A DNA stretch of 64,000 nucleotides, from NCBI GenBank assembly GCA_030632085.1, contig DAOVJY010000002.1:13325-77324 (forward strand), read 5' to 3'. A program made the position numbers and the translations under genes. A model generated the notes under the pieces. It ran no database searches. It had not been told where the DNA came from and saw nothing but the letters and a program-made list of their open reading frames with translations. This DNA comes from Candidatus Omnitrophota bacterium (GTDB lineage Bacteria > Omnitrophota > Gorgyraeia > JAGLLT01). Positions 6,575 through 61,427 of this stretch are shown piece by piece; the first letter of the stretch is position 1; every line of letters starts with the position of its first letter.

Positions 6575-6793
6575 ATGAGCACATCAGTATCAGTAAGAAT
6601 TCCAGAAAAATTAGCTAAAGAGCTGGAGTCAGTAGTTAAAATTACAGAGAGATCCAAGTCTTTTCTTATTCAAAAAGCTCTAGAGACCTACCTCGCGGAA
6701 CAAGCCGACTTGCAGATTGCGTTGGATAGGCTCCACGATACCACTGATTCGATTGTTTCAATCAGTCAAATGAGGAAAGAACTTGAAATATAA
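6575..6793 (+). CDS. ribbon-helix-helix (CopG/RelB-like) type II antitoxin
   Basis: 72 aa. The N-terminal VSVRIPEKLAKELESVV RHH beta-strand/helix pattern is present, and the gene overlaps the downstream RelE/ParE toxin gene. Confidence 0.75.
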   Translation: MSTSVSVRIPEKLAKELESVVKITERSKSFLIQKALETYLAEQADLQIALDRLHDTTDSIVSISQMRKELEI

Positions 6794-7043
6794 AATTGCA
6801 TTTAAGAAATCAGTTAGCAAGGATTTAAAAAATATAGGTAAAGAGCAATCCAAAAGGATACTAAATAAAATAGAAAAAGAGTTGCCTCTTGCGGCTAATA
6901 AATATCCGGAGCTTAAAGGGAGATTTAAGGGATTACGCAAGGTTAGAGTGGGTGATTATAGAATAGTTTATACTGTTATTAAAGATATCGTTTTAATTGT
7001 AAGAGTGGGACATAGAAAAGAAATATATGGGAAAAATAGATAG
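6783..7043 (+). CDS. RelE/ParE family type II toxin
   Basis: 86 aa. KGLRKVRVGDYRIVYTVIKDIVLIVRVGHRKEIY is the classic RelE/ParE C-terminal signature, and the gene overlaps the antitoxin gene. Confidence 0.85.
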   Translation: MKYKIAFKKSVSKDLKNIGKEQSKRILNKIEKELPLAANKYPELKGRFKGLRKVRVGDYRIVYTVIKDIVLIVRVGHRKEIYGKNR

Positions 7044-7110: not shown

Positions 7111-8688
7111 ATGAAAGATAATAATTCAATTGAAAATGACTGGGTAGCTATACTGGATTTTGGTTCACAGTATACGCATTTAATTGCCAGAAGAGTACGT
7201 GAATTTAAAGTTTACTCTGAGATAATACCCTTTAATATTAAGGCTAGAGACTTAGCGAAACGAAATCCCAAGGCTATTATCCTTTCCGGAGGCCCCGCCA
7301 GTGTTACCGCTAAAAAAAGTCCTATGTGTGATAGAGGAATTTTTGAATTAGGTATTCCCGTCTTAGGTATTTGTTACGGGGCTCAGTTGATGAGTAAGGT
7401 TTTTGGGGGCAAAGTAGTCGGAGCCAAAAAAAGAGAATACGGTAAGGCTATTTTTAAACCTAAAGTTAATAAAAGCCTTTTTAAAACTATCAATAAAAGT
7501 CAAAATGTCTGGATGAGTCACGGGGACAGGATTAAAAAATTACCCCACGGTTTTAAAGTAATAGGTGTTACCGCTAATTCTCCGGTAGCGGCTATGGCTG
7601 ATGAGAAAAAGAAGTTTTATGGACTGCAGTTTCATCCGGAAGTAGTTCATACTCCCAACGGAAAGACTATTATAAAGAATTTTGTAAAAGATATCGCTAA
7701 ATGTAAGCCTAACTGGAGCATGCAGTCTTTTACAAAAGAAACAATCAAGAAAATCAGAGAAGATGTCGGTAAGGATAAGGTTCTCTGCGGTATGTCGGGC
7801 GGAGTTGATTCCTCAGTTTTAGCTTTGTTACTTCATAAGGCTATAGGCAAAAACCTAATCTCCATTTTTATAGATCACGGTTTGGGTAGAAAAGATGAAG
7901 CCAAACAGGTAGAAAAAAGATTTAAAAAATATTACAAGTTAAATTTGAAAGTTGTTAATGCTCAGAATGATTTTTTAAAGGCCCTAAGAAACGTAACTGA
8001 TCCCGAGAAGAAAAGGAAGATTATCGGAAAAATCTTTATTAAGGTTTTCGAGAAAGAGACCAATACGCTTACGGGCACAAGAAAGATGGGTAAAATAAAA
8101 TATCTGGCTCAAGGCACTCTTTATCCTGATGTAATTGAGTCTATCTCACCTACAGGCGGACCCTCAGCCACTATTAAAAGCCATCATAATGTGGGAGGGT
8201 TACCTAAAAAATTAAATTTCAAGTTAATTGAACCTTTGAGGGATTTATTTAAGGATGAAGTTAGATTAGTCGGAAAAGAACTTAAGATGCCGGATGAAAT
8301 AATCCATAGACAGCCTTTTCCGGGGCCCGGCCTGGCAGTTAGAATTGTTGGAGCGGTTACTAAAGAAAGATGTAACATCCTAAGAGAGGCCGACTGGATT
8401 TTAAATGATGAAATAAAAAAAGCGGGATTTTATAGAAAGCTCTGGCAGTCATTTTGTGTTTATCTTCCCGTAAAGTCGGTTGGTGTTATGGGTGATGAAA
8501 GAACGTATGAGGATGCTATCGCTATAAGGGCGGTAGTTAGTGAAGATGCCATGACGGCCAATTGGGCCCATTTGCCATATAGCCTGCTTGAGAAGATATC
8601 TAACAAGATAATAAATGAAGTAAAAGGTATTAACCGCGTAGTTTATGACATTTCCTCTAAACCGCCAAGTACTATAGAGTGGGAGTAA
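7111..8688 (+). CDS. guaA: GMP synthase (glutamine-hydrolysing)
   Basis: 525 aa with GATase domain (GICYGAQLM), ATP-PPase SGGVDSSV P-loop and C-terminal dimerisation domain ending EWE. Confidence 0.95.
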
Positions 8689-12270: not shown

Positions 12271-12462
12271 ATGAGAACGACATTAAACATAAAAGATGAT
12301 TTAATTAAAAAAGCCTCTAAACTTACAGGTATAACGGAGAAAACCAATCTGGTTAAATTAGGGTTGGAAGCACTTATCGCGGCAGAAAGCAGAAAAAGGT
12401 TAGCTAAATTAGGTGGGACTGAAAAGAGGTTGAATAATATTTCACGCAGGAGAATCAATTAA
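12271..12462 (+). CDS. vapB: VapB-family type II antitoxin
   Basis: 63 aa. MRTTLNIKDDLIKKA N-terminus is typical of VapB antitoxins. The gene overlaps the PIN toxin gene by 1 nt (TAATG). Confidence 0.8.
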   Translation: MRTTLNIKDDLIKKASKLTGITEKTNLVKLGLEALIAAESRKRLAKLGGTEKRLNNISRRRIN

Positions 12463-12824
12463 TGATCCTTGTTGATACATCCGTGTGGGTTTCCCATTTG
12501 CGCGATGGTAATTCTAAACTTGAACAGTTGTTGAATAATGGAGATGTGCTTTGTCACTCATTTATCGTTGGAGAGCTTGCGTGCGGTAATATTAAAAATA
12601 GAAGCGAGATATTGTCTTTGTTAAATACACTCCCTAAAGCTGATATTTTGGATGACGAGGAGGTTTTGATGTTCATTGAAAAAAATAATTTAATGGGTAA
12701 AGGACTTGGCTTAATTGATATTCATCTTCTCGCATCCACAATGTTAAGTGAAGCTGCCTTATGGACATTAGATACTAAGTTAAAACATAAAGCTCATATA
12801 CTAGGTGTATCCTGCGAATATTAA
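12462..12824 (+). CDS. vapC: PIN-domain toxin VapC
   Basis: 120 aa. MILVDTSVWVSHL with the acidic residues conserved, and IDIHLLAS. Confidence 0.85.
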   Translation: MILVDTSVWVSHLRDGNSKLEQLLNNGDVLCHSFIVGELACGNIKNRSEILSLLNTLPKADILDDEEVLMFIEKNNLMGKGLGLIDIHLLASTMLSEAALWTLDTKLKHKAHILGVSCEY

Positions 12825-25087: not shown

Positions 25088-25191
25088 ATCCCGCATTTCG
25101 CTAAAGCTCAAAGTTGCGGGATTTAATTCGGCCATATGATTTATGAGCACTATAGTTCCATAAATCATGGCCTCATTAAAGGAGGAGAAAG
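25088..25191 (+). promoter_or_regulatory. conserved 5' leader module (hairpins, TTAATTC, anti-SD CCTC-ATTAAAGGAGG)
   Basis: Hairpin atcccgca-N19-tgcgggat (25088-25122). ttaattc at 25123-29. Hairpin atgatttatg...cataaatcat (25136-25168). ggcctcattaaaggagg (25169-85) in which CCTC can pair with the SD GAGG. ATG at 25192. Confidence 0.5.
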
Positions 25192-25566
25192 ATGAAAGTA
25201 TGCTTAAGTTCTACGGGTGATAATTTAGATGCCCAAATAGATACACGCTTCGGCCGCTGCCGTTATTTTCTTTTTATCGACACTGATGGCATGGAAGTTG
25301 AGGCGATGGATAATGCTAATATTGCCTCGGCAGGCGGAGCCGGCATCAGGTCAGCCCAGTTGGTAGCTGATAAAGGGGCAGAAGTTCTTATAACCGGTAA
25401 TGTAGGCCCTAACGCCTTTGATGTTTTAAGTGCCGCCGGTATTAAAATTTATAGCGGCGCATCCGGCAGCATTAAAGACGCTTTAGAAAAATTGAAAACA
25501 GGTGGATTGAATGAGACCGGCGGCCCGGATGTAGGAAGTAAATTTGGTTTCGGAGGCGGCAAGTAA
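25192..25566 (+). CDS. second NifX/NafY-like DUF134 (PF02579) protein
   Basis: 124 aa. MKVCLSSTGDNLDAQIDTRFGRCRYFLFIDTDG, with a Gly-rich tail. Confidence 0.75.
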   Translation: MKVCLSSTGDNLDAQIDTRFGRCRYFLFIDTDGMEVEAMDNANIASAGGAGIRSAQLVADKGAEVLITGNVGPNAFDVLSAAGIKIYSGASGSIKDALEKLKTGGLNETGGPDVGSKFGFGGGK

Positions 25567-26427: not shown

Positions 26428-26671
26428 TTTCCGGGACTAAATCTTCGGAATTTCACAGCGTGAAATTCCAGAGGGTCTGACAATTTTGCGACTCTCGGCG
26501 GAATTAATTCATCCTGCCATTATGGAACTCATTAAGGAAATCAATAGACTCCTCGCTTAAATAAAGGTAAATTTTCTTCGACAATTTACCTTTAAGCTTC
26601 GGAGTTAATTCTGGTCTATCATTTACAACAATGAAGTTGGTGTAAATGATGCCCTCATTAAGGAGAGGTAA
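26428..26671 (+). promoter_or_regulatory. long structured leader: degenerate module copy, then palindrome AAAGGTAAATT-N9-AATTTACCTTT, TTAATTC, hairpin and anti-SD/SD
   Basis: Perfect palindrome GGAATTTCAC-AGC-GTGAAATTCC at 26445-26467. 11-bp perfect inverted repeat at 26563-26593 (spacer ttcttcgac). ttaattc at 26605-11. Hairpin 26618-26650. gccctcattaaggag at 26651-65. ATG at 26672. Confidence 0.5.
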
Positions 26672-28015
26672 ATGAAAAAGACGGATGTTTTGGTTGTTGG
26701 AGGAGGCCCGGCTGGCATTATAAGCGCGGTTACAGCCCGCAGGTATTATCCGGAAAAGGAAGTCAAACTGATTAAATCGGTAGATAAAGGAGTTATTCCC
26801 TGCGCCATACCTTATATGTTTTACAGTTTGAAAAGTCTTAAAGAAAATGCCCAGGGCAACGCGCCTCTTGAAAAGAATAATGTTGAAGTAATAGTTGATG
26901 AAGTTACAAAAATATCACCTGATAAAAAGTGTGTTACAACTAAAAAGGGAGAAGAGTATCAGTATGACAAGTTAATAATGGCGATGGGTTCAGAGCCCGT
27001 TATTCCTCCTATCTCCGGAGCGGACAAAGAGAACGTCTTTGCTATCTATAAAGATATGGAATACTTAGAAAAGCTTGCTGAGAAAATAAAAGGGTTTGAG
27101 AATGTGCTTATTGTGGGGGGAGGATTTATCGGAATAGAGTTTGCTGATGAACTGTCCTGCCGTAAAGAGTTTAACGTATCTTTAGTAGAGATGCTGCCTT
27201 CTATTTTGAGCCAGTCTTTTGATGCTGAATTTTCTGCTCCAGTCAAGGAAAGGCTGGAAAAAAAGGGCGTGAAGCTGTTAACAGGTGTAGTTTTAGAGGA
27301 AATTTTGGGTGAAGAAAAAGTTGAGGGAGTTAGATTATCAGGTAATAAAAAAATAGACGTAGATTGCGTTATTTTTGGTATTGGGGCTTCGCCCAACACT
27401 AAAGTAGCTCAGGAAGCTGGAATAGTTATAAATAAAGGCAAGGGAGTATGGGTTGATGAGTATATGAGGACGTCAGAGCCGGATATTTTTGCCGTTGGCG
27501 ACTGTGCCGGCAAAAGAGATTTCTTTACCCGTAAGGGGACGGCGATTTTACTTGCCTCAACAGCTACGGCAGAAGCTAGAATCGCGGGCGCCAGCTTATA
27601 TAAGTTAAAGTTGATTAGGGAGAATAAAGGGACCATTGCCATTTATTCCACCCGTATTGACGGCCTGGTTTTAGGGTCGGCGGGGATGACTGAAGATAGC
27701 GCTAAGAAGGAAGGGTTTGAAGTTGTAACCGGCCTGGTAGAAGGTGTTGATAAACATCCCGGGACTATGCCCGAGGCAAGCAAACTAATGGTTAAGCTTA
27801 TCTTTTCAAAGCAGTCGGGAATTATTTTGGGAGGACAGGTTGCCGGAGGTATGAGCTGCGGTGAGCTGATAAATGTTATCGGGGTTGCTATACAGCAAAG
27901 AGTTTCCTTGAATGAATTTGAAACTTTGCAGATGGCTACTCATCCATGTCTGACCGCGGCTCCCACAAAATATCCTTTAATCATCGCGGCCCAGAATGCT
28001 TCAAGTAAGATGTAA
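26672..28015 (+). CDS. FAD-dependent pyridine nucleotide-disulfide oxidoreductase, NADH oxidase/CoA-disulfide reductase family
   Basis: 447 aa. VLVVGGGPAGI FAD motif, redox Cys in GVIPCAIPY (the Nox/CoADR SxxxC-xxPY region), a second Rossmann fold VLIVGGGFIGIEFA, and GDCAG. Confidence 0.85.
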   Translation: MKKTDVLVVGGGPAGIISAVTARRYYPEKEVKLIKSVDKGVIPCAIPYMFYSLKSLKENAQGNAPLEKNNVEVIVDEVTKISPDKKCVTTKKGEEYQYDKLIMAMGSEPVIPPISGADKENVFAIYKDMEYLEKLAEKIKGFENVLIVGGGFIGIEFADELSCRKEFNVSLVEMLPSILSQSFDAEFSAPVKERLEKKGVKLLTGVVLEEILGEEKVEGVRLSGNKKIDVDCVIFGIGASPNTKVAQEAGIVINKGKGVWVDEYMRTSEPDIFAVGDCAGKRDFFTRKGTAILLASTATAEARIAGASLYKLKLIRENKGTIAIYSTRIDGLVLGSAGMTEDSAKKEGFEVVTGLVEGVDKHPGTMPEASKLMVKLIFSKQSGIILGGQVAGGMSCGELINVIGVAIQQRVSLNEFETLQMATHPCLTAAPTKYPLIIAAQNASSKM

Positions 28016-30768: not shown

Positions 30769-31481
30769 AAATCAGAATTATAGCTGATAACTATACGCAG
30801 GATAGTAGATTTAAAGAGTGCTGGGGATTCTCAGTGCTTATAAATGATGATATTTTATTTGATACGGCTGATAGTGCTGAAACTTTTCTATATAACGCGA
30901 AACAGTTAGATGTTGACCTTTCAGCCATAAAAAAAGTAGTTATTTCACATGACCACTGGGATCATATTGGTGGGTTGGAATCTTTATTTAAAAAAAATCC
31001 TAACGTTGAACTTTATGGTTTAAAGGATTTTTCCGAAGATTTCAAAAATTTAGCCGATAAATATAACATAAAATTAATTGAATGTGAAGATTTTAAGGAA
31101 ATTGATCCAGGCGCTTATGTAAGCGGTTCATTTAAAACTATATATAAACAGAAAAAGCTTGTTGAACAAGCACTAATATTAAAAACTGTAAAAGGCCTTA
31201 TAATCATATTAGGTTGTTCCCACCCGGGAGTAGTTGAGATGGTAGAGGTTATAAAGAAGCATTTCAATGAGAAAATATACTACGTTATGGGAGGATATCA
31301 TTTAGGCTCAAAAACAGAGAATGAAATTGAAAATATAGCGTTAAAGCTGCAAAAACTGGGTGTTAATAAAGTTGCTCCTACACATTGTACGGGCCAAAAG
31401 GCAATTGATATTTTTAGTAAAATGTATAGCGATAATTTTTTACGCCTTAAAACAGGCCTGGAAATTGAATTTGATTTTTAA
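30765..31481 (+). CDS. MBL-fold metallo-hydrolase (COG1237-like)
   Basis: 238 aa. VISHDHWDHIGG metal-binding motif and GCSHPG. Confidence 0.75.
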   Translation: MKIRIIADNYTQDSRFKECWGFSVLINDDILFDTADSAETFLYNAKQLDVDLSAIKKVVISHDHWDHIGGLESLFKKNPNVELYGLKDFSEDFKNLADKYNIKLIECEDFKEIDPGAYVSGSFKTIYKQKKLVEQALILKTVKGLIIILGCSHPGVVEMVEVIKKHFNEKIYYVMGGYHLGSKTENEIENIALKLQKLGVNKVAPTHCTGQKAIDIFSKMYSDNFLRLKTGLEIEFDF

Positions 31482-31496
31482 GTGAAGACACAACTT

Positions 31497-31625
31497 ATAG
31501 AGCGGGAGCGAACATAAGTTGTATGTCTGAACTTACCCCGCAACTTTCTATTTCGGAGAAGTTCTTCGTAGCAAAAAAGTGCGGGGTTTAATTCGCACAG
31601 AAACTTACGCTCACTTTGTTTCGTA
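31497..31625 (+). promoter_or_regulatory. hairpin-rich intergenic region (three stable stem-loops), a candidate structured RNA or regulatory region
   Basis: agacacaacttat...ataagttgtatgtct (about 14 bp stem). ccccgca-N34-tgcgggg followed by tttaattcg (same architecture as 25088-25129). aaacttacg...cgtaagttt. Confidence 0.3.
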
Positions 31626-31689
31626 AGTTTAGCGCTCATTTAAAAAATAGCTTGAAATAACCCCCTATTTCTGTAACAATGTACTCTAA

Positions 31690-32256
31690 ATGAAAAAAGA
31701 ACGTATAGTTTTAGATACAAGTGTGTTTGTGAATCCGGAGTCAAAATATAAGTTCGGGCGCAAACCGACGACCGCGTTTTTGAATTTTCTTAAGCTCGCG
31801 GAGGGATCAAAGAAGTGCATTTTTTATATGCCCCCCTCAATATATGCTGAGCTTATGAATTTTATTGATTCAAGTAAAATACCGGCGAAACTTTTGTTAT
31901 TTATTCATAAAAAAGCTCCTAAAAAATATGAGTTGAGCATGCCGGCTATGTTCTTTTATGAACTGGTTGATGATATGAGAAAAAGGGTTGATAAAGGGTT
32001 GCGTCTGGCTGAGAAGGGGATACGTCAGGCTAAAGACGCGAAAAAGATAGATGAGGTTATAAAAAGAATAAGGCATGATTATCGGACGGCTTTAAGAACA
32101 GATACTATAGATTCCAAGGAAGATGTAGACCTGATTCTTTTGGCTAAAGAACTAAAGGCAACTTTGATTAGTGTTGATAATGGAGCTATCTTGTGGGCCC
32201 ATAAACTAGGCATTAAATGCCGTGAGGCTAAAGAGCTTAAAAGCTTATTAAAATAA
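31690..32256 (+). CDS. PIN-like domain protein, HARP (homolog of Aquifex protein-only RNase P) / MJ0950 RNA-ligase-partner family candidate
   Basis: 188 aa. N-terminal RIVLDTSVFVNPES and C-terminal LILLAKELKATLISVDNGAILWAHKLG acidic clusters resemble PIN_5/HARP proteins of about 190 aa. Confidence 0.5.
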   Translation: MKKERIVLDTSVFVNPESKYKFGRKPTTAFLNFLKLAEGSKKCIFYMPPSIYAELMNFIDSSKIPAKLLLFIHKKAPKKYELSMPAMFFYELVDDMRKRVDKGLRLAEKGIRQAKDAKKIDEVIKRIRHDYRTALRTDTIDSKEDVDLILLAKELKATLISVDNGAILWAHKLGIKCREAKELKSLLK

Positions 32257-32273
32257 CGTATAAGGAGTAAGTC

Positions 32274-32678
32274 ATGAGTGAAGAGAAAAAGGACGAACAG
32301 CAAAACATTGAGAATCAACCGGAAGTAAAAGAAGAGGTAAAGACGGAACAGTCAAAAGAAGAGGTAGCTAAAGAACCGCAAAAGCCGGAAGTAAAAAAAG
32401 AGGAAGTAAAACAAGAAGAAAAAGCTCCTGAAGTTGAGGTAAAACCGGCCGCGGAAGAAAAAATTGAGGAAAAGCCTCAGGAAGCAAAAGAGGCAGCTCC
32501 GGCAGTTCCGGTAGCTCCAACTGAAAGCAAAGAGAAGAAGAAAAAGAAAATAAACAATATGAGTTTGGATGAGCTGGATAAAAAGATCAAAGAAACAGAA
32601 GATAAAATGGGTAATCTAAATTCGAAGTACGCTCAATCCCTAAAAGAACAGAGAGAAAAACTTTCTAATAAAAGTTAA
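32274..32678 (+). CDS. Lys/Glu-rich low-complexity (probably disordered) protein
   Basis: 134 aa made of EVKxEE/KPE repeats. Good SD (aaggag) upstream. No recognisable domain. Confidence 0.45.
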   Translation: MSEEKKDEQQNIENQPEVKEEVKTEQSKEEVAKEPQKPEVKKEEVKQEEKAPEVEVKPAAEEKIEEKPQEAKEAAPAVPVAPTESKEKKKKKINNMSLDELDKKIKETEDKMGNLNSKYAQSLKEQREKLSNKS

Positions 32679-32774: not shown

Positions 32775-32805
32775 AAGGGAGATATGGTTTTTATCTCCCT
32801 TTTTC
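32775..32805 (+). terminator. rho-independent terminator
   Basis: aagggagata / tatctccctt stem followed by ttttc. Confidence 0.6.
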
Positions 32806-32952
32806 ATTGAAAATAATAGTTAAATTTTGTATACTAATGATAGGCAAAACAAGAAATATTAAAAAACGCGGTTGGTTATATTTTGGCTCTTGCTCTATAG
32901 GTTTCTCACGGGAGCAAATTCACAAACTTAATAAAGATAAGAAGAAATATTT

Positions 32953-39283: not shown

Positions 39284-39500
39284 TAGCTAAGAGCAAAGGG
39301 CAAACACAGGATTAAGGATTAAGAATTAAGGATTAAGTAAAAAACAAGATACAAAAAACAAGTACAAAGTCACAAGACACAAGTTGTAAGTCACATGACA
39401 TAAGTCACAAGTAAAAAACAAAAACAAAAGAACAAAAAGATAAGACACAAGAAATAAGTTATAAGTCATACCCTTTCGGGCACAGGCAAGACACAGGTCA
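39232..39500 (+). repeat. modular A/C-rich intergenic repeat locus 2 (modules D, A heptads, B decamers, C A/C tracts, D)
   Basis: agtcataccctttcgggcacaggcaag at 39232-58 (inside the PFOR 3' end) and again at 39464-90. Heptads gattaag/aattaag at 39310-37. aagtcacaag / aagacacaag decamers. caaaaacaaaagaacaaaaaga tracts. Almost T-free on the + strand. Confidence 0.8.
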
Positions 39501-39526
39501 CAAGAAACAAAAAAGTAAAGATGTCC

Positions 39527-39649
39527 CTTGCTTAAACAAAGGTAAATTCTCTTTGACAATTTACCTTTAAGCTTCGGGATTAATTCGGGCTTATCATTTA
39601 CGACAGCGAAGCTGACGTAAATGATGCCCTCATTAAGAGGAGGGTTTGT
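39527..39649 (+). promoter_or_regulatory. conserved cis-module copy 2: palindrome AAAGGTAAATT-N9-AATTTACCTTT, TTAATTC, hairpin, anti-SD/SD
   Basis: Inverted repeat at 39538-39568 with spacer ctctttgac (contains TTGACA). ttaattc at 39580-86. Hairpin 39593-39625 with compensatory changes relative to copy 1. gccctcattaagaggagg. ATG at 39650. Confidence 0.55.
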
Positions 39650-39838
39650 ATGAAAGCTGTAGTAATTAAAGATTTATGTACCGGTTGCGGCCTTTGTGTC
39701 AGCACCTGTCCTGATGTTTTTGAAATGGTTGGTGATGTAGCGGAAGTTAAAGGAGATGTTGTACCTGAAGCCGCCGAGGATACCGCGAAAGAGGCTACTC
39801 AGAATTGTCCTGTAGAGGCCATAACCATCGAAGAATAG
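39650..39838 (+). CDS. fdx: 4Fe-4S ferredoxin (single-cluster type)
   Basis: 62 aa. CTGCGLCVSTCP plus the distal Cys in NCPVEA. Confidence 0.85.
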   Translation: MKAVVIKDLCTGCGLCVSTCPDVFEMVGDVAEVKGDVVPEAAEDTAKEATQNCPVEAITIEE

Positions 39839-60141: not shown

Positions 60142-61365
60142 TTGATGGATTATCAAAATATCTATTTTATTAGCGCGATAATATTGGGCTTCTATATGGC
60201 CTGGAACATCGGTGCCAACGATATGGCGAACGCGATGGCCAGCTGTGTTGGAGCTAAAGCGGTTACTTTAAAACAGGCCGTTTTTATAGGGGCTATTCTA
60301 TGTTTTTTTGGAGCTACCTTAGTGGGTGGCCATGTAGCTGATACAATAAAAAAAGGTATTGTCGATACTTCCGCCATCGCTGATTTAGACATTATAATAA
60401 AAGGTTTATTGGCTACGTTATTAGCCGCCGGCATTTGGATTACTTTTGCTACCTGGTTTGCCTGGCCGGTTTCCACTACGCATTCTATCATAGGAGCTTT
60501 AGTCGGTTTTGGTTTATTCGCGATTGGGCCTCAGTCGATTAATTGGAGTAAGCTTATCGGAGTTGTGATTAGCTGGGTTAGCTCCCCTGTTTTTGCCGGA
60601 CTGACGGCTTTTGTTTTTTTTAAAATTATTCATAGGTTTATTTTATCCGTTGATGAGAGCGAAAAAGCGACAGTTAAAATCGGGCCTATCTTTATAGGCA
60701 TGACTTTTTTTCTGGTGGTAATGTCTTTATTATTAAAGAGCCCATTGGGTAAACTTTTGGAAATTGGGTTAGCTGACGGATTATTGTATGCTTTGACGGC
60801 GGCCGTTATAAGCGGAGCCCTCGGGTTTTTGTTTATCAGGAAAGTGGTCGCGAAAGGTTACAAAGTAGAAGATGTCTTTAGGGTTTTACAAATTATGACA
60901 TCATGCTATATCGCGTTTTCTATAGGAGCTAACGATGTTGCTAATGCTGTTGGCCCGGTAGCCGGTATCCTGGGTATTATAAAAGACCAGAGCCTTCAAT
61001 GTAAAGTGCAGGTACCTGTAAATCTTTTGGCTATGGGAGGAGTTGGTATTATTTTAGGTATGGCTACATGGGGTTACAAGGTTATCGGTACTGTGGGCAG
61101 TAAAATTACAGAGTTGACTAATTCAAGAGGATTTTCTATTGATTTTTCGGCGGCTACCAGTGTGCTTATAGCTTCAAAAATGGGTATGCCGGTTTCAACC
61201 ACACACGCGGTGATCGGGGCGGTTTGCGGTGTGGGGCTGGCCCGCGGTTTAGACGCGGTTGATTTTAGAATTGTGAAGAAGATTTTTGTCTCGTGGATAG
61301 CCACCATACCGGCGGCGGCAATTACATGTATACTGCTATATAAATTGTTTATGTGGCTTTTTTAA
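60142..61365 (+). CDS. pit: inorganic phosphate transporter, PiT family
   Basis: 407 aa. Duplicated GANDMANA / GANDVANA signatures. Confidence 0.9.
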   Translation: MMDYQNIYFISAIILGFYMAWNIGANDMANAMASCVGAKAVTLKQAVFIGAILCFFGATLVGGHVADTIKKGIVDTSAIADLDIIIKGLLATLLAAGIWITFATWFAWPVSTTHSIIGALVGFGLFAIGPQSINWSKLIGVVISWVSSPVFAGLTAFVFFKIIHRFILSVDESEKATVKIGPIFIGMTFFLVVMSLLLKSPLGKLLEIGLADGLLYALTAAVISGALGFLFIRKVVAKGYKVEDVFRVLQIMTSCYIAFSIGANDVANAVGPVAGILGIIKDQSLQCKVQVPVNLLAMGGVGIILGMATWGYKVIGTVGSKITELTNSRGFSIDFSAATSVLIASKMGMPVSTTHAVIGAVCGVGLARGLDAVDFRIVKKIFVSWIATIPAAAITCILLYKLFMWLF

Positions 61366-61427
61366 ATGAACACGCAATTTATGAAAGCAATAAACATAAA
61401 TTGCTTATTAAACGGAGGTGATGGTTT

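Follow-up and report, generated by a model that had tools for sequence, protein, structure and literature searches.

A member of the HARP family of protein-only RNase P in the Omnitrophota and the dispersed hairpin repeat upstream of its gene

Introduction

HARP is a small protein-only RNase P, an enzyme that matures the 5′ ends of pre-tRNAs without any RNA component. The founding member of the family, Aq_880 of Aquifex aeolicus (7F3E, 8KD9), is the sole RNase P of its host. For PbHARP, the protein of ‘Planctomycetes bacterium GWF2_40_8’, the apo form (7E8K) and the complex with pre-tRNA-His (7E8O) have been solved (Li et al. 2022, PMC9051087); its residues R116, R123, R138 and R142 touch the T-loop of the tRNA, and cleavage is abolished by the substitutions R108A and R146A (PMC9051087). 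Of five HARPs assayed it was also the weakest, its cleavage reaching about 6% in 20 min (PMC9051087). Most HARP-bearing bacteria retain both rnpA and rnpB, and the exceptions, which have HARP and lack RNP components, are the Aquificaceae, a few genera of Nitrospirae and some ‘unclassified’ bacteria (PMC6380272, PMC10941002). A survey from 2025 describes HARP mostly in organisms of hot, saline or alkaline environments and its gene mostly beside that of the Rnl3 ligase (PMC12153264). Of the HARP genomes, 89% encode this ligase, and in about 80% of the bacterial cases with a ligase the two genes are no more than 5 kb apart, usually in convergent orientation (PMC12153264). This proximity is typical of the family and does not define it. 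Table S1 of the survey has no Omnitrophota entry (PMC12153264).

Here we describe a HARP gene on an Omnitrophota metagenome contig. We refer to the whole 64-kb stretch of DNA that was analysed as the window. What is new is the example of HARP in the Omnitrophota; the family is already known both structurally and biochemically, and is so well characterised that the gene itself adds little. The lineage departs from the picture drawn by the survey, in that its HARP appears to be constrained and vertically inherited and has no ligase nearby. The features of the locus are listed in Table 1.

Table 1. Features at the HARP locus, in window coordinates
Feature	Position	Strand	Remarks
Three-hairpin repeat element, 157 nt	31482..31638	.	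arm A, central hairpin B, inverted arm A′; TTTAA flanks both sides
Candidate sigma-70-like promoter	31652..31680	+	TTGAAA, 17 nt, (TG)T-AACAAT; predicted from sequence
HARP (PIN_5) CDS	31690..32256	+	ATG to TAA, 188 aa, stop codon within the coordinates
Catalytic Asp codons	D9 31714-31716; D141 32110-32112; D145 32122-32124; D147 32128-32130; D163 32176-32178
Glu/Lys-rich protein, 134 aa	32274..32678	+	17 nt past the HARP stop; own AAGGAG 7 nt upstream of the start
G+C-rich hairpin with flanking A run and T run	32776..32808	both	terminator-like
Promoter-like site for RNase HII	32807-32835		3′ of the terminator-like hairpin

Results and discussion

Family membership, active site and fold

The ORF is a genuine gene and clearly belongs to HARP, a known family. 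Its product is a basic protein of 21.7 kDa (pI 9.7), and independent gene calls on ENA ERZ23498525 scaffold_7 (286 kb) and on a Logan contig gave the identical protein. The first-pass annotation had proposed a HARP / MJ0950-family PIN protein from the motif VLDTSVF, the C-terminal acidic clusters and the size of about 190 aa. All three are present, with VLDTSVF at residues 7–13 and the clusters DSKEDVD and SVDNG at residues 141–147 and 161–165, and the proposed identity is borne out by profiles, solved structures and the predicted fold. The Pfam profile PIN_5 (PF08745) matches residues 5–188 far beyond chance (E=3.3e-53, 180.6 bits vs a cut-off of 27), and NCBIfam TIGR03875, the MJ_0950 family, also scores above its curated cut-off (179.3 vs 95.3 bits). 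TIGR03875 carries the name ‘RNA ligase partner’, which is the old name for the HARP family, and the annotation had been right about this label too. With the NCBIfam PRK04358 equivalog models, none of the six scores reached the cut-off (the best was NF003344, 206.6 vs 241 bits), and the window HARP thus belongs to a subgroup outside the coverage of these models. When the PDB was searched by sequence, the best seven matches were all ‘RNA-free ribonuclease P’, aligned over approximately the full length; they comprise all seven solved HARP chains, among them PbHARP (7e8k, E=2e-58, 53% identity) and those of T. celer, A. aeolicus (41%), Hydrogenobacter thermophilus and Halorhodospira halophila (E=3e-37).

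The closest characterised relative is PbHARP, with its 53% identity extending over the full length. All catalytic aspartates and all of the mutated arginines of PbHARP (D151/D155/D173 and R108/R110/R116/R123/R138/R142/R146) are identical in the alignment. Among them, the arginines at the tRNA elbow and the cleavage site, R108, R116, R123, R138, R142 and R146, correspond to R97, R105, R112, R128, R132 and R136 of the window protein, and the strand M93/V95/A97 at the dimer interface of PbHARP corresponds to L82/M84/A86. Unlike PbHARP, the window HARP lacks the basic N-terminal extension of 14 residues (helix alpha-0), which adds affinity for tRNA, and has K125 in place of T135. Aq_880 is equal in length to the window HARP and has the same set of arginines, and its tetrad D7/D138/D142/D160 aligns with D9/D141/D145/D163; its host is a hyperthermophile, unlike the low-GC metagenomic Omnitrophota bacterium from which the window comes. 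In alignments of 30 and of 40 homologues, the published catalytic and arginine positions show little or no variation, and across the 40 homologues D9, D141, D145, D147 and D163 as well as R97/R99/R105/R128/R132/R136 do not vary.

An AlphaFold2 model of the monomer (pLDDT 86.3) shows a PIN core with an arm of two helices at residues 86–136 (86–116 and 120–136); the protein of about 190 aa has no separate RNA-binding domain. The top 34 matches of this model in Foldseek were all HARPs. When it was superposed on tRNA-bound PbHARP (7e8o) and on the cryo-EM complexes of the Aquifex and Hydrogenobacter proteins (8kd9, 8kda), the TM scores were 0.89–0.93 with an rmsd of 1.5–2.0 Å; the values were 0.9–0.93 for the tRNA-bound form of PbHARP and 0.85–0.89 for Aq_880.

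Could the protein instead be a VapC-like PIN toxin of a toxin–antitoxin pair? Within the PIN superfamily HARPs are grouped with VapC, and it has been proposed that they originated as toxins (PMC6380272), the PIN core and the acidic active site are common to both, and a small acidic protein is encoded immediately downstream of the gene. Nevertheless we regard a toxin as highly improbable here, since the generic PIN model PF01850, to which VapC toxins belong, stays under its threshold (17.1 vs 23.6 bits), there is no antitoxin gene upstream, and no ORF fits the 50-nt spacer between the upstream gene for an MBL-fold hydrolase and HARP in the relatives. The best non-HARP PIN structures (Nob1, VapC4 and PAE2754) reach a TM of at most 0.42 to the model, and the two-helix arm (about residues 86–136) is an addition that VapC does not have. 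Stable synteny and low dN, which are described below, are atypical of toxin–antitoxin modules as well. A genuine VapB/VapC pair in the window looks different, its PIN protein of 120 aa passing PF01850 (31 bits) and its VapB gene lying upstream (12271–12824). A second toxin–antitoxin pair of the window, an RHH antitoxin and a ParE toxin, is found at about 6575–7043. A toxin–antitoxin identity of the window HARP was rejected on profile and gene context. Both tests named beforehand for the HARP reading, the profile comparison with an unrelated PIN subfamily such as VapC and the alignment of the catalytic aspartates, favour it, because the profiles are PIN_5 and TIGR03875, and not PF01850, and the aspartates match those of Aq_880 and PbHARP perfectly. 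We thus return to HARP, and consider that the gene very probably encodes this minimal protein-only RNase P of bacteria and archaea, with pre-tRNA cleavage and oligomeric state carried over from its homologues.

Lineage, synteny and selection

Relatives of the gene were found by scanning one genome per GTDB species. By HARP, the nearest named relative of the source contig is Ca. Kappaea frigidicola (JAVCCI01, 94% identity), followed within the Omnitrophota by two more MAGs (94% and 89%), another MAG (73%) and the complete 1.28-Mb chromosome CP070684.1, whose HARP is 50% identical. Beyond this group the nearest homologues belong to the Thermodesulfovibrionia/Nitrospirota (52–60%). The order of the genes, namely MBL-fold hydrolase, HARP, Glu/Lys-rich protein, RNase HII, thioredoxin, HAD, PNPOx and PFOR, is conserved in the relatives with 89–94% identity. 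The 73% relative has the same order from HARP onward to PFOR, and in a 71% relative HARP, the small protein, RNase HII and thioredoxin are still together. Compared with Ca. Kappaea, HARP is 94% identical at the amino acid level and the neighbouring genes 70–87%. The dN of HARP is 0.03–0.06 (0.031 vs Ca. Kappaea), the lowest of the neighbourhood, where the other genes range from 0.06 to 0.21, and its dN/dS is 0.03–0.07 in three comparisons. Its GC content (0.37 vs 0.38 for the window) and its GC3 fit the surroundings. Synteny, low dN and matching GC together point to vertical inheritance and very strong purifying selection; HARP would then be a tightly constrained gene of a housekeeping type and neighbourhood, and not a recent accessory acquisition.

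In contrast to typical bacterial TIGR03875/PF08745 loci with their convergent ligase, no Rnl3 gene is adjacent to the window HARP or within about 30 kb of it, and no ligase domain was found among the called genes in the approximately 84 kb around it. Neither was a ligase found within 8–10 kb on either side of HARP in the 71% and 57% relatives (L055 and L056); in the 50% relative (L007) the ORFs flanking HARP were read for a ligase by eye only.

Proposed mode of action and physiological role

By homology, HARP would be a PIN-type metallonuclease of about 22 kDa with an inserted two-helix arm, whose dimers would assemble into tetramers or larger rings as in the related proteins, which form tetramers or dodecamers. 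One dimer would grip the tRNA elbow (the T and D loops) through R105, R112, R128 and R132 of the helical arm, and the active site of a neighbouring dimer, with D9, D141, D145 and D163 together with R97 and R136, would cut off the 5′ leader at +1 in a Mg2+-dependent manner. Removal of the pre-tRNA 5′ leader by the window HARP is what we infer from the sequence. Some caution is appropriate: four HARPs from bacteria that also carry the RNP enzyme did not cleave pre-tRNA in vitro (PMC9945441, as cited in PMC12153264), and together with the weakness of PbHARP this means that membership of the family is no guarantee of a physiological RNase P function.

It may be that the protein has the HARP fold and that its main job is not pre-tRNA 5′ cleavage, but the processing of other structured RNAs, or a role next to that of the RNP enzyme as a nuclease for stress or back-up. 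Such a role would accord with the observations that HARP knock-outs in two archaea had no phenotype and that several bacterial HARPs were inactive on pre-tRNA in vitro, and C/D box RNA precursors and 5′-adenylated pre-tRNAs have been proposed as substrates (PMC12153264). We nevertheless hold it to be rather unlikely, as the window protein keeps every residue with which PbHARP touches the elbow of the tRNA and the site of cleavage, and Rnl3, the proposed partner, is not nearby. A dN as low as that of HARP also speaks for a function that is constant and important, and against a dispensable one.

Is HARP the only RNase P of this organism, the Kappaea-like Omnitrophota having lost rnpA and rnpB in the manner of the Aquificaceae? 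A HARP-only genome of the Aquificaceae type is one without rnpB (RF00010/RF00011) and rnpA (PF00825), in which A is enriched at position −1 of the tRNAs and the acceptor stem has no G-C extension. Neither rnpA nor rnpB was found in about 84 kb (the window and 10 kb at each end) of the 286-kb contig. Rfam at gathering thresholds gave no RNase P RNA in the window and 47 loci, and altogether RNase P RNA, RnpA and L34 were absent from the window, the 20 kb of extension, the related loci and 249 kb of repeat-bearing contigs. A tblastn search of 492 kb with RnpA of E. coli, B. subtilis and T. maritima and with L34 returned nothing below E=2. Since the search covered no more than about 84 kb of a single genome, the absence of rnpA and rnpB there is almost uninformative.

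Several observations would nonetheless suit a HARP-only organism: HARP is the most constrained gene locally, it has a conserved promoter-like site of its own and synteny down to 71–73% identity, there is no compositional sign of recent transfer, and the lack of a nearby Rnl3 partner is compatible with it. HARP without RnpA is reported for a few genera of Nitrospirae and for some ‘unclassified’ bacteria (Daniels et al. 2019, PMC6380272). All the same, rnpA and rnpB are kept by most HARP-bearing bacteria, and PbHARP is a weak enzyme. ARAGORN found no tRNA gene in the window or in the loci of the Kappaea lineage; on distant contigs which share the repeat described below, and which are not known to carry HARP, four distinct tRNAs have A, A, T and T at −1, few in number and of uncertain provenance, and CCA is encoded in five of the six tRNA genes with a complete 3′ end. 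This is unlike Aquifex, where 38 of the 44 tRNAs have A at −1 (PMC12439589). We consider a HARP-only state unlikely. HARP probably works alongside an RNA-based RNase P, as in most bacteria that possess it. A literature search for Omnitrophota or Omnitrophica together with RNase P gave nothing relevant. The presence or absence of rnpA and rnpB in the Omnitrophota bears on why the two types of RNase P coexist or exclude each other, and if the Kappaea-like Omnitrophota were HARP-only, they would be a second, apparently non-thermophilic, bacterial lineage with ribozyme-free maturation of tRNA 5′ ends.

Predicted expression of HARP and the gene downstream

The −10 of the candidate promoter ends 9 nt 5′ of the HARP ATG and there is no Shine-Dalgarno sequence. 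The −35, the −10 and their spacing are kept in four relatives (L003–L006), and equivalent sites are present in L055 (7962–8003, TTGAAA-17-CAGAAT) and in the distant L007 (9959–9997, TTGCCT-17-TAAAAT). In all Omnitrophota HARP genes compared, the −10 ends 8–10 nt before the ATG and a Shine-Dalgarno sequence is missing. Because the −10 lies this close to the ATG, we infer a leaderless or near-leaderless HARP mRNA, with a predicted start at about 31687–31690, and the comparison suggests that HARP may be translated from leaderless messages across Omnitrophota relatives down to 50% identity. The predicted transcript, made from HARP’s own promoter, would be a bicistron, as the gene for the Glu/Lys-rich protein is probably co-transcribed with HARP and the terminator-like hairpin probably ends the unit.

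A small protein is encoded directly after HARP throughout the Kappaea-like lineage (for instance at 8586–8948 in L055 and 2546–3031 in L006). Its acidic N-terminal part of low complexity (pI 4.7), which is rich in Glu, Lys and Pro and variable in length, precedes a basic C-terminal helix segment, KKINKMTLDExDKKIKETEDKMGNLNSKYAQ; it is the C-terminal residues, about 40 of them, that are conserved beside HARP in the relatives. No Pfam family matched the protein. It might be a partner or modulator of HARP.

A dispersed repeat upstream of HARP

The spacer of 208 nt upstream of HARP folds into three hairpins, with z=−3.2 on the (+) strand and −4.5 on the (−) strand relative to shuffled sequences, and the gene had been described as sitting behind a hairpin-rich leader. 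This description has to be abandoned. The hairpins are those of the 157-nt element, which is inserted past the stop codon of the MBL-fold gene and ahead of the HARP promoter and is not a part of the HARP gene. It is missing from the three closest relatives (L003, L004 and L005), in which the distance from the MBL stop to the HARP ATG is about 50 nt, and the empty site in them, GATTTTTAAAAAAT, corresponds to the TTTAA found on either side of the insert. The element is mobile, as the empty site indicates. A riboswitch or attenuator leader for HARP was also considered and rejected, the hairpins being absent from the closest relatives and located upstream of the conserved promoter. A permissive Rfam scan of 31300–32400 gave matches at chance level only.

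The structured repeat family to which the element belongs was what we had expected least in this analysis. Metagenome contigs were searched with a pattern of the left hairpin (26 fixed bases and a variable loop), and this pattern was found in 43 stretches (L012–L054) with many unrelated flanks, some of which contain two copies. The repeat is built from a conserved hairpin of about 55 nt (arm A) and a diverged version of it in inverted orientation (arm A′), with a central hairpin in between. The central hairpin varies freely in sequence and length and its loop occurs in either orientation. When 15 diverse copies are compared, compensatory changes affect 10 of the 14 base pairs of the outer hairpin, and 94% of the cells of the alignment are paired, compared with at most 41% when the partners are slid. 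A covariance model of the outer hairpin recovered six copies from the window and 101 from the metagenome loci, which identifies the hairpins upstream of HARP as one copy of a dispersed repeat. This repeat is MITE/REP-like and has no specific tie to HARP. No Rfam family corresponds to it.

Other window copies of the hairpin lie at 25124–25178, 26606–26660 and 39581–39635, with a weak one at 61364–61415. The central hairpins group into sequence families that are common to several loci, and some arms contain nested palindromic inserts (L029 and L045). The carriers of the repeat are distant from one another, and their RNase HII is only 44% identical to that of the window.

Three of the hairpins in the window occur alone and close 5′ UTRs (25124–25194, 26606–26674 and 39581–39653). 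In each case the solo hairpin is followed by CTCATTAA, a Shine-Dalgarno sequence of the GGAGG type, 5–7 nt and an ATG, and the three genes behind are different, with starts at 25192 and 26672 and, at 39651, a small ferredoxin ORF. Such a hairpin could serve as a stabiliser of the mRNA 5′ end, a processing site or a protein-binding site. The full repeat occupies another kind of position in L016, L026, L035, L043, L013 and L028, where it comes after an FMN riboswitch and its terminator hairpin and before the start codon of ribB; it ends there with ...CTCACTT-ATG and has no Shine-Dalgarno sequence. It abuts the ATG of tgt-like, queD-like and metallophosphoesterase-like genes in the same way. Since the repeat adjoins the ATG with no Shine-Dalgarno sequence between them, it might possibly be processed to give leaderless mRNAs. 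Finally, just 5′ of one repeat hairpin, in the spacer of 370 nt that follows the PFOR gene, there is an A-rich, purine-skewed stretch of low complexity (39290–39520), which is made up of short degenerate repeats (GGATTAAG..., ACAAG/ATAAGTCACAAG...).
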